DNA from: a virus
Lineage: Duplodnaviria; Heunggongvirae; Uroviricota; Caudoviricetes
Virus record (IMG/VR): IMGVR_UViG_2778261533_000003
DNA length: 14,325 nt
Reading direction: 5' to 3' (one strand)
A program made the position numbers. Below, piece by piece: positions 1 to 3,000 of this stretch (positions are counted from its first letter, which is position 1; each line of letters opens with the position of its first letter).

Positions 1-3000
1 CCGGAACAATTTGAAAACAAGAACCTCGCTTAGGCCTGTGTCCATATTACGTGGGTAGGATCAGGTATCATGTAGGGAAAAACTAAAAAGAAGGGGGGGT
101 TATGGGTTGGTCTTCGCTGGTTAGGATAACCATTGGTACATTTCTATTAGCTGGGTTGTCGTTCTCTACATACGCGAAGAACTGCAAGAAAGGTATACCA
201 TGCGGTAATTCGTGCATTGCGGTTGGAAAAACGTGCAGGATTGGATCAAGCACCTCTTCTGCGTATAAAAATTATTCTTACTCTTACCCATCATCTTCTC
301 TTCATAGTTCAATCCCTAACTCCTCTTCACATTCCCCATCAGCGAAGGTTGAGGGAAAAAACACAGCTTCAACTGCGAAAACCTATCTCTGTCAGTACGC
401 TATTGCAGCAGTACAGAATGGTAGAATAGGTTCTTTACGTGTGCTGGGAAGTGCTGAAGTAACGTTGCATGTTGATAGCTTCAAAGCTAACCGTTTAAAC
501 GGTACATACTTGCTTTCGCCAAAGTTGAAACCTGATGGTAAGTTGATGACAGCAGATGATAAAAGCAAAGTGTACGCTTATGATTCGTTGCTGAATAACT
601 TTGCAATCAGTGATCGAGTTGCAAGGACTACTGAGCAATGGGATCATTGCCGTCAAAAATGATTGTTAGGGGGCAACATGGGAAGTGAACTGATTTCTGG
701 TTTAGTTGGTGCCTTGATAGGGGGATTGTTCACCCTGTGGGGTACTCTGATCGATGGACGTAGGCAAGACAGAGCTTCATTTAATGAAGCAAAGGATAAG
801 CAAAAGAGTGTCTTGATTGGAATAAAAGCAGAAGTCGAAACGCTTCTGGAACTTTATAAAGCCAGAATTTACGATTCTCTTGAAAATTATGAAGGTGGTA
901 AACCTTTTGAAAGCATCTTTCCGTTGACTCAAAATTATTTCTCATTCTATGAAAGCAACTCTTTTGCATTAACTTCTGTTAATGAAGAGACAATGAAGGC
1001 AATTGTTATTTGTTATGGCTCAGCAAGGAGTCTGGTTGATACTTTCAGAATGAATAATCAGGTTTTAGAGGACTTAGCTAAACTTCAAACCATATTTCAT
1101 GAAACGCAGAAAGATATCCATCGTTTTAATTTAGAACAGACTTACCATATTGCCACTCAATATGGCGAAGGTTTGAAGCAGATTCATGGCGAGGTTATGT
1201 CACGTATAGCCATCTGTTTAGATAAAATTAATGTTAATTTGGATGAACTTGAAAAGCCTGAGCAGGTAACGCGGTTAAAAACCGTTCTTAGGGCTTTAGC
1301 TTTTATAAAGTGAACTTGTTAAAATTAGGGGCAATATGTCTGGAGTGTTGGCAAGTACAGCGGCGGCTGTAGGTATCATTGACAAAGCTGTAGGTATTGC
1401 AAAGAAGCTCGCTGATGATGGCGGCGAACTTGATAAAGCAACGCTTAAACTTGAGCTTGCTAACCTCATGAGCGAACTTGCAAGTGTGAAGATGGAAGTA
1501 ATCACAACCCAAGCACTTCTTTTTGAGGCTGAACAGAAAAATAAGCAGCTTGAAGAGCAGCTAAAGGATAAGCACACCTTCACTTTCAAAGATGGACTTT
1601 ACTGGAAAGAAGGCGATGAAACAGCCTACTGTCCCAAATGCTTTGAAGTTGATAAGGTGCAAACACACATGGTTTTTTCGCGTGCCGTTGGTCAATACTC
1701 CGCGAGTTGGTATTGCATTAATTGCAGAAACAGCATTTATCCAAAATCCCGTTAAAATCGTTATTCTTTGGCGGAAGTGTCAAATGTTTTTGCATAAGGG
1801 CATTTCCCCTTAGTTACGTAAGTGAACAGATAATTGCTGTTCTGATACGTGCACAGCGTTTTTCCATTCTCCGTCTGTTCTTCCTGTGGGTTGACCATTG
1901 TTATCTGTCCGGCATTCGATAGGACAGGCAATAGCGCCAACGTCAGCACAAATAAGCTTTTAATTTGGATCACCATTCTAAAGAAAACTCCTCTGCTAAA
2001 TCGTCCTGCACATCCTGACCATACCCGATGTAATACATAGTAGAGCGCGGATCTGTCTGTCCCAGGAAATGGGCTATTGTCTCTATAGCTACCCCTGCAT
2101 CAAACATCACACGGCCCCGACTTTTACGTGGCGTATGGCATCCCACATTAGAGAATCCGGCTCTACGTCCCATCTTCCCAAATTCAGTGAATACCGTGTT
2201 ACGGGTTACGGCTTCGCCTTTACTGCGTAATGTGCCAGCACTGAAAATAAAATCTGTAGCTACAGGCATCTTCGTTTGCTCTGCCTTGCGTTGTGCCACC
2301 ACTGACAACATGGCGGGGGTAACTTTTGGCCTTACTACGTTTCCGGTTTTCTCCTGCTTTATCTTCAAATGAGATTGCCCCTCAACATCCTGATATTTTA
2401 GCTTGAGTACGTCAGAGACACGCAACCCGCTTTCATACATAAACACCCATAAGCAATAAAACAGGTTGGTTTTACTATTGCGCTGTAGCTCTGCTGCTAC
2501 TGTTTTTACCTCGTCTACATTCTTGAGGGCTTGGCTAATACCTTTCATCTTTATACTCTCCTTATTCGTTTCAATGAAAGTAGTTTTGATCATAAAATGA
2601 TCATTTTCAATATGTTGCACGATACGTTTTATGGTTGAGAGCACTAAATGATCAAAAATGATTAAAGGGCTATTAAAAGGTGATTAAGACTGATTAAAAG
2701 GTATTAAAGGCGATTAAAACCGATTTAATTTAGGTGCGTTCGTCACCATCGTTGAACACAAAGATCAAGCCTCCCGATCTGATGCAGGCACAAATATGAA
2801 ATATCTTGTTGATTTATAAGTAAATTTATTTTATGCAAACTGTTCACAAATGATTTGTCTTGTCAAGAAATTTATTTTCGGCAGATGAAAAATAGCCAAT
2901 AAATAGCGATAAATGGTCTATATATGCCTGAGTATATAAAGATCAGTAGGTTACAGAATACACTTTGCTAAAGTGTATCGAATCTGGGTTGTATTGCATT

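Follow-up and report, generated by a model that had tools for sequence, protein, structure and literature searches.

The window analysed here, a stretch of 14,325 nucleotides of Caudoviricetes DNA (IMG/VR record IMGVR_UViG_2778261533_000003), is an Escherichia coli chromosomal island—satellite-like and integrated at a tRNA gene, beside glyU—and the subject of this work is the DNA immediately upstream of the gene for its small tyrosine recombinase. The interval 2587-2731, which reads TGATCATAAAATGATCATTTTCAAT...GAGCACTAAATGATCAAAAATGATTAAAGGGCTATTAAAAGGTGATTAAGACTGATTAAAAGGTATTAAAGGCGATTAAAACCGATTTAATTT, contains two kinds of element: GATC-centred boxes that recur throughout a family of related islands, and an array of GATC-less units that succeed one another at about one helical turn. 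From the recombinase gene rightwards the features are the following:

1970-2548, minus strand: gene of the tyrosine recombinase, 192 amino acids, with its start at 2548 according to RefSeq and a PF00589 match at E=8e-16
2582-2610, minus strand: predicted promoter P_rec, with the -35 hexamer TTGAAA at 2605-2610, a 17-bp spacer and the -10 hexamer AAAACT at 2582-2587
2587-2592: box 1, TGATCA, abutting the -10 hexamer, its GATC kept in 34 of 35 versions
2594-2607: box 2, AAAATGATCATTTT, a perfect palindrome of 14 bp whose GATC starts at 2599, abutting and overlapping the -35 hexamer
2611-2641: linker, consisting of the conserved ATGTTGCACGATAC and then about 14 variable bp, as judged by column conservation in a 35-sequence alignment
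2642-2657, plus strand: box 3, CACTAAATGATCAAAA, 51 bp from box 2 and in the orientation opposite to that of boxes 1 and 2
2659-2731, plus strand: array of seven units with the consensus S-S-(G/T)-ATTAA-(A)-n-S-S, anchored at 2661, 2672, 2683, 2693, 2703, 2713 and 2723

Conserved boxes and a phased array upstream of the recombinase gene

We gathered related loci (numbered L in what follows) from one genome per species, from viral contigs, from contigs encoding homologues of the recombinase, and from a metagenome scan with a conserved-block pattern; the sample thus comprised 35-42 distinct versions of the DNA upstream of the recombinase and 22 distinct versions of that upstream of P_R, the promoter of the divergent rightward operon. 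Among the metagenome loci the search pattern itself accounts in part for the conservation of box 2; box 3, for its part, lay outside that pattern, and its conservation is therefore informative.

The -35 hexamer of P_rec is identical in all 32 distinct relatives and is followed by the 17-bp spacer. The -10 hexamer is AATGAT in 26 of the 32 and AAAACT in the window, every variant having A at position 2 and T at position 6, and P_rec is accordingly a plausible promoter of the recombinase. Boxes 1 and 2, with both of their GATCs, fill the spacer of this predicted promoter, in agreement with an earlier, sequence-only reading of this DNA, which had placed paired GATC sites and repeats in the recombinase promoter region. 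TGATCA hexamers stand at 2587-2592, 2598-2603 and 2649-2654, their GATCs starting at 2588, 2599 and 2650. Three such hexamers within 66 bp arose in 1 of 500 simulations; three bare GATCs within 66 bp arose in 212 of 500 and are hence not rare. The longer motif AAATGATCA occurs at 2595, 2646 and 4382 as well as on the minus strand at 2598-2606, four copies against a simulated mean of 0.36. The sequence-only reading had also described a 14-bp palindrome carrying two GATC sites 11 bp apart; the palindrome and the 11-bp pair are both present, but the palindrome contains only one of the two GATCs, the other belonging to an imperfect palindrome.

Among the relatives, the distance between boxes 1 and 2 is 11 bp in all 35 versions, and boxes 2 and 3 lie 51 bp apart in 32 versions, the remaining 3 having 50 bp. 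The 16-bp block of box 3, CACnAAATGATCAAAA, is invariant or nearly so in the 35 versions, all of which keep its GATC, and the least conserved positions of the whole block are those between boxes 1 and 2. In Salmonella arizonae (L004) both promoter boxes have changed in parallel from TGATCA to TGATAA with the spacing intact. This comparison establishes the boxes, at the level of sequence, as a family-wide operator; since the conserved units measure 14-16 bp, they would be the binding sites of a sequence-specific protein, with a Dam site at the centre.

The same motif stands at the other promoter of the region, along with two hairpins:

2549-4554: stretch of about 2 kb free of open reading frames (ORFs), between the recombinase gene and the rightward operon
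2762-2780, minus strand: G+C-rich hairpin AGATCGGGAGGCTTGATCT with a T-rich tail, found by terminator scan to the right of the array, with a GATC in each arm
4378-4390, plus strand: box 4, TTGAAAATGATCA, an inverted copy of box 2 and its -35 flank, 20 bp upstream of the -35 hexamer of P_R
4410-4438, plus strand: rightward promoter P_R, TTGACA-17-TATTGT, with 10 of 12 matches in the promoter scan, which drives the operon
about 4494-4530, plus strand: leader hairpin or terminator between P_R and the first gene (4555)

Box 4 lies 1.78 kb from the other boxes, upstream of the divergent operon promoter, and the 13-mer TTGAAAATGATCA is common to 2598-2610 on the minus strand and 4378-4390 on the plus strand, where the two copies form a perfect inverted repeat. 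The recurrence of the box motif next to the promoter at 4410, as noticed in the sequence-only reading, is thus borne out by the 9-mer at 4382 and by the 13-mer around it. Upstream of P_R, TGAAAA[A/T]GATC is found in 20 of the 22 distinct versions and GATC in all 22, whatever the type of recombinase. We tried the P_R form TGATCA (instead of AGATC) as a signature of a tyrosine recombinase, which rule fitted the islands with a serine recombinase and was broken by L066 and L068, where TGATCA stands at the recombinase and AGATCA at P_R.

As to the hairpins, the one at 2762-2780 has the appearance of a terminator of leftward transcription, from which it may shield P_rec; a homologous G+C-rich block follows directly after box 3 in those relatives—type B in the following—that lack the array. 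The hairpin at 4494-4530, CACTTTGAGCCGTCAGGCTGCAAGGTG with a T-run (TTTTT), is kept in every related island found, very diverged ones included, although this conservation comes in part from loci retrieved through the hairpin itself; its appearance is that of a terminator or attenuator in a leader and recalls the RNA-based immunity of P4.

The phased repeats that the sequence-only reading had noted beside the recombinase promoter turn out to be box 3 plus the seven units of the array. Anchored on ATCAA, ATTAA or ATTTA and counted from box 3 (2651), they are spaced by 10, 11, 11, 10, 10, 10 and 10 bp, with a mean of 10.3 bp and a distance of 72 bp from the first anchor to the last. The units share the orientation and the helical phase of box 3 and carry GATT instead of GATC. 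The first of them, AAAAATGATTAAA, differs little from the box AAAATGATCAAA, T having replaced C; the array therefore has the look of box 3 amplified in tandem long ago, deprived of its Dam sites and retained thereafter. Of 1000 Markov simulations set to the base composition of the AT-rich region, none yielded six ATTAA within 85 bp. A+T makes up 74% of the array, the autocorrelation of A/T versus G/C along it peaks at a lag of 10, and a wedge model—used for its ranking only—put the strongest predicted bend of the window at 2606 and the array at the 99th percentile.

Where it is present, in 11 typed loci (the window-type E. coli islands, L016, L020 and L050 of Klebsiella, and L028), the array stands between box 3 and TGTGTGCGCGGTTGC; in the 35 type-B loci, which lack it, box 3 is followed directly by TGTGTGCGCGGTTGC. 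A fourth array lineage, L069, fetched later and therefore outside the loci typed for presence of the array, has four units with no box 3 before them and a 59%-identical variant of the recombinase. The number of units varies among the lineages (seven in the window, seven in L016, L020 and L050, six in L028 and four in L069) and the phase is kept. A blastn alignment of window positions 1933-2727 with L016 (82% identity) runs through the array, the units being thus positional homologues with the same spacings; 33 of 35 positions are equal in the ATTAA cores versus 15 of 35 in the flanks, at five per unit (Fisher p=4.7e-6). The logo of 24 units is S-S-(G/T)-A-T-T-A-A-(A)-n-S-S, with ATTAA exact in 19 and the spacers rich in G/C and free in sequence. 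Every array-bearing locus adjoins the small tyrosine recombinase family, and the array is absent from islands with a serine recombinase or with a tyrosine recombinase of the L066 type. In sequence, then, the array is an optional module that is conserved where present and that looks to be under selection. Its occurrence in four diverged lineages, with core and phase kept and spacers free, speaks indirectly for the cooperative protein binding that the sequence-only reading had suggested.

Proposed mechanism and competing explanations

Our interpretation—a tentative one, to which we grant somewhat less than an even chance—is that 2582-2731 is the control region of the leftward recombinase promoter, and that it would serve as the platform of a cooperative DNA-bending protein that extends the GATC-centred operator. 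The first layer would be the family-wide operator, with two boxes in the spacer between -35 and -10, a third of opposite orientation 51 bp upstream, and a fourth 1.78 kb away; the second, optional layer would be the array, seven degenerate and GATC-less copies of the box (TGATCAAA having become sGATTAAAns) that run from box 3 at one per helical turn. The comparison of relatives demonstrates both the nucleation sites and the selected periodic array. A small DNA-binding protein would nucleate at the high-affinity boxes and spread cooperatively over the phased ATTAA cores, wrapping or bending about 80 bp of a DNA with predicted curvature of its own; the wrapped DNA, upstream of P_rec at about -65 to -150, would set the activity of the recombinase promoter, and the wrapping may also shape the architecture of a recombination site used by the recombinase. 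The mode of binding might be that of directionality factors (P2 Cox, 186 Apl, lambda Xis) or that of a nucleoid protein. Dam methylation of the GATCs in the boxes could tune the binding, to which methylation the units of the array would be blind.

We propose nucleation and spreading because the anatomy of the array matches that of the arrays to which directionality factors bind. The cox-box of P2, TTAAA(G/C)NC(A/C), comes in six copies or more whose starts lie 10-11 bp apart, within a footprint of at least 70 bp, and P2 Cox binds as a filament that wraps DNA and activates a promoter of the satellite P4 (PMC3936717); 186 Apl and other directionality factors bind cooperatively to direct repeats one helical turn apart, with bending of the DNA (PMC7498355). 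The array shares with those the arrangement of at least 4-6 direct repeats at 10-11 bp over about 70 bp (PMC3936717, PMC7498355). As to the sequence of the P2 cox-box, TTAAA is found in five of the seven units, positions 8-9 are unconserved in any lineage, and only TTAAAGGGC and TTAAAGGCG reach seven of the eight specified positions. Therefore the array is not a P2 Cox site as such, and, TTAAA being all that it has in common with the cox-box, the relation would be one of functional analogy and not of membership.

Several observations weigh against a cooperative binder of this kind. The presence of no island protein tracks that of the array, and no winged-helix directionality factor was recognized by Pfam among the island proteins. 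The 60-amino-acid product of the first gene seemed to track the array in the first set of loci, but homologues with 75-88% identity exist in array-less islands; its predicted structure, moreover, is a plain three-helix fold with no Cox-like, Xis-like or other structural match. The units depart from the P2 cox-box outside TTAAA, and the array lies away from the attachment (att) site, at 2.6 kb from the nearest end of the island. Most relatives lack the array, and the core function can consequently do without it. A/T cores in phase, with G/C spacers between them, will also curve DNA without any protein, and both P_rec and its start site are predictions only.

Two further searches concerned possible partners: an ORF of 63 amino acids at 9963-10154 gave a weak hint of HTH_17 (E=0.09), and neither box nor array motifs occur in the 55 kb searched of phage PaulScherrer, a presumed helper. 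An extension of the proposal, which we regard as speculative and improbable, is that the TGATCA boxes and the array together sense helper infection or replication of the island—through a helper protein or through transient hemimethylation—and switch on the recombinase needed for the satellite life cycle, the array acting as a methylation-blind reservoir. A phased binding array at a promoter is a familiar design; this element and its regulator have not been described before.

Control by Dam or SeqA, the former already suggested as a possibility by the sequence-only reading, is the competing explanation that survives best, and we consider it possible, if on the unlikely side: the methylation state of the box GATCs would decide whether a regulator or SeqA occupies P_rec, with the expression of the recombinase either bistable or tied to the island's replication or entry. 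That the GATCs are kept in 34 of 35 versions at box 1, in 35 of 35 at box 3 and in 22 of 22 at P_R, inside motifs of 14-16 bp some of whose flanking bases vary, favours such a role, as do the two GATCs 11 bp apart within the predicted P_rec spacer, a distance that suits SeqA, and the A-tracts that flank the boxes. Methylation is poor at GATCs that follow A4, and the sequence of the pap sites is TAAAAGATCGT (PMC4417163); in the islands with a serine recombinase the P_R box, GAAAAAGATCGT, resembles the pap site, which likeness is limited to the P_R box of those islands. A published Dam/IHF switch, at the promoter of a prophage integrase (PMC12455584), constitutes a precedent. Moreover, two array-bearing Klebsiella islands encode an N6-adenine methyltransferase of their own, of phage type, fused to a helix-turn-helix domain. 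Nevertheless, the conserved unit is of 14-16 bp and not a bare GATC, so that a sequence-specific protein would be needed anyway; in S. arizonae both promoter GATCs have become GATA with the spacing kept; the seven units of the array carry GATT; and three GATCs in 66 bp are common by chance. Dam/SeqA modulation of the boxes is thus plausible from the sequence, and is compatible with the cooperative platform rather than exclusive of it.

The methyltransferase (PF05869, TIGR01712, with a C-terminal Hin-like helix-turn-helix) is encoded at 8495-9184 on the minus strand in L016 and at 3467-4135 in L020, by a gene inserted into the ORF-free region about 650 bp to the right of the array; in L020 three more phased TTGATTAA units lie just upstream of it. 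Phage PaulScherrer has a Dam-like enzyme, to which this methyltransferase is unrelated. The gene was found only in L016 and L020, and a decayed copy in the window was discarded after a tblastn search with the L016 enzyme gave no match. No consensus for an IHF site is present in the region, nor did we recognize Lrp or OxyR motifs at the GATCs, though no Lrp or OxyR matrices were run.

A different use of the same DNA would be as the site at which the recombinase resolves multimers, composed of the conserved block as core and the array as one-sided accessory repeats, with P_rec embedded in it and autoregulated; this we judge unlikely. One argument in its favour comes from sister islands, in which a serine recombinase of 183 amino acids stands at the same position with its own repeat-rich (TGATT-rich) upstream region, for such swapping of recombinases at a fixed position is the pattern expected of an exchangeable module of recombinase plus site. 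In addition, the islands carry Rep-like genes and iterons, so that they probably replicate as circles, which mode of replication would need resolution; all the array-bearing loci adjoin this recombinase family; and conservation is lowest between boxes 1 and 2, as it would be in a crossover region. Yet no clear pair of inverted arms flanks a spacer of 6-8 bp, boxes 1 and 2 reading best as direct repeats: in an 8-7-8 reading around the spacer between them the arms match at 6 of 8 positions, and such a reading is possible only because TGATCA is palindromic. The motif of the P_R box is furthermore kept in islands that have a serine recombinase instead, and the present recombinase has no arm-binding domain with which to read accessory repeats. 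The serine recombinase occurs in L053 (6213-6764 and the DNA upstream), L055, L056, L059 and L063-65, and third and fourth types of small tyrosine recombinase occupy the same slot in L066/L068 and in L069, respectively.

The array might, alternatively, have no dedicated binder, having arisen by slippage from box 3 and persisting as a curved upstream element of the promoter or under a coat of H-NS like the rest of the AT-rich region, which explanation appears quite improbable to us. The near copy of box 3 in the first unit, the alternation of A/T cores with G/C spacers at 10.3 bp, the high predicted curvature and the 74% A+T all accord with it, and the units resemble the high-affinity motif of H-NS, TCGATAAATT. 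But ATTAA is kept specifically in 19 of 24 units when any A/T-rich sequence would curve, the maintained G/C-rich spacers disfavour H-NS, and the window and L016 preserve the number and phase of the units across about 18% DNA divergence; we therefore take pure curvature or coating by H-NS to be less likely than a dedicated protein.

That the array is a replication origin with Rep iterons, or else a partition centromere, is very improbable indeed, even though short tandem repeats in AT-rich DNA without ORFs, on an element that has a Rep-like gene, call such functions to mind and their spacing is like that of ParR-type centromeres, which use repeats of 10-11 bp. The same array accompanies unrelated Rep modules—HTH_36 in the window and DUF6945 in L016—while most islands are without it, no gene for a partition ATPase is present, and longer, island-specific iterons lie elsewhere in the ORF-free region (GTGACAAAATGGCAC in L002; ATACATCAAAATGATGTA, five times, in L028). 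The array does not track the type of Rep and other iterons exist; therefore its units are not Rep iterons, and the term "iteron-like" that the sequence-only reading had applied to them is not supported in the replication sense. The window itself has perfect tandem 23-mers, GGGGGGTGTCGGTCACGATGACT twice and TTCCTACCTACCCAGGAAATGAG 2.3 times, at 3333-3378 and 3518-3570, each tandem followed by an AT-rich stretch and by a repeated block of about 75 bp (3432-3505 and 3616-3688). This 23-mer region probably serves as the origin of replication, which the variable Rep protein would read, the sister islands differing in their iterons there.

Phase variation by inversion, finally, falls away: there is indeed an inverted repeat at 2598-2610 and 4378-4390, and it is conserved, but the segment is flipped in no locus—the junction expected after inversion is in none of the complete E. 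coli genomes (37 carriers), and opposite-strand alignments of the segment are absent among 49 related loci—so that the repeat is not the edge of an invertible switch.

The island and its satellite-like character

The recombinase possesses little outside its catalytic domain and is similar in size and architecture to FimB and FimE; it aligned weakly, over nearly its full length, with the NCBIfam model of tyrosine-type DNA invertases NF007371 (E=2e-7, far under the cut-off). Over 1900-4600, the only stretch compared, the window and NZ_CP148382.1 show 100% identity. Of 5426 complete E. coli genomes, 715 contain related DNA, and only 37 have the window's own recombinase with its upstream region. 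Beyond the ORF-free stretch the order of genes is the rightward operon, an HTH_36 Rep-like gene, a capsid gene of the lambda-E type, a gene for a tape-measure-like protein of 613 amino acids, and, at the far end, the integrase.

Over its full length the capsid protein has 23-25% identity to those of the Stephanstirmvirinae, a group of virulent myophages about 150 kb in size. The 613-amino-acid protein is 30% identical over 380 amino acids to the tape measure protein of Phapecoctavirus, its match with the tape measure protein of PaulScherrer being confined to the first 60 amino acids, and a ribbon-helix-helix-like protein of 58 amino acids has 91% identity to bas60_0101 of phage PaulScherrer. 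The regions with homologues in the Stephanstirmvirinae are 8407-12014 and 4761-4937 of the window, along with loci L071 and L072. Since the capsid and the tape measure have homologues in large virulent phages, these islands may be a new kind of satellite, and the gene content suggests, more particularly, a hitherto undescribed satellite of the Stephanstirmvirinae that brings its own capsid and tape measure. A literature search for satellites of Stephanstirmvirinae phages found no papers, and the window has no similarity to known phages at the DNA level.

Between the tRNA-proximal end and the recombinase, 102-1976 holds variable cargo, which in the window comprises hypothetical proteins together with a small secreted protein whose gene is co-transcribed with that of the recombinase; in L002 a SieB superinfection-exclusion gene lies there, and in L016 a gene of the Rap1a family. 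The region looks like a hotspot for defence or cargo. Within the ORF-free stretch, 3700-4340 is 87-91% conserved in the otherwise differing islands L053, L064 and L065 and contains a long-range complementarity of 3734-3762 with 3983-4009 as well as many G+C-rich hairpins; folding gives z-scores of -2.2 for the plus strand and -3.1 for the minus strand, with no Rfam match, and it may be a structured RNA or DNA site. An Rfam scan of the whole window at E<=1 gave nothing but one chance-level match outside the region studied.

If the DNA upstream of the recombinase is a cooperative operator, it marks the control point of the recombinase in a widespread and unstudied family of E. coli and Klebsiella islands. 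The identity of the binder would show how the island senses its helper, and any role of Dam would add a case from a mobile element to the few epigenetic switches that are well understood. The island family itself may be a more interesting object than the array.

Comparison with known systems

Resolution sites such as those of Tn3 (res), Tn4430 (TnpI) and cer/psi combine a site and a promoter immediately upstream of a recombinase gene with extra repeats on one side, as the candidate site here would, and the sister elements here carry an enzyme of the serine resolvase type at the same place; they differ from the present region in that its core architecture is not recognizable as theirs and its box motif stands also at a distant promoter. 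Switches of the fimS type resemble it in that a tyrosine recombinase with a catalytic domain alone adjoins an ORF-free segment bounded by an inverted repeat of 13-14 bp; unlike fimS, this segment measures 1.75 kb, has both promoters outside, and is in a single orientation throughout the 37 carrier genomes and the 46-49 other loci.

The Dam-sensitive regions governed by Lrp (pap), by OxyR (agn43, gtr, opvAB) or by IHF (intA) share with the boxes the presence of promoter GATCs within longer motifs, the A-tract flanks, and the combination of a proximal GATC pair with a distal site (PMC4417163, PMC12455584). Whereas the Dam-sensitive genes for surface structures are of another kind, the gene adjacent here encodes a recombinase in a satellite-like island.

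The arrays of P2 Cox and 186 Apl and the one described here have in common at least six repeats at 10-11 bp, a core of the TTAAA type, an extent of about 70-80 bp, and a location near promoters of mobile elements. In contrast to P2 and 186, the island yielded no Cox-, Apl- or Xis-like protein, and its GATC boxes have no counterpart in those phages; the array is placed upstream of P_rec, at one end of the region between the divergent P_rec and P_R and not near the ends of the island. In P4, P2 Cox is the means by which a satellite senses its helper (PMC3936717, PMC7498355).

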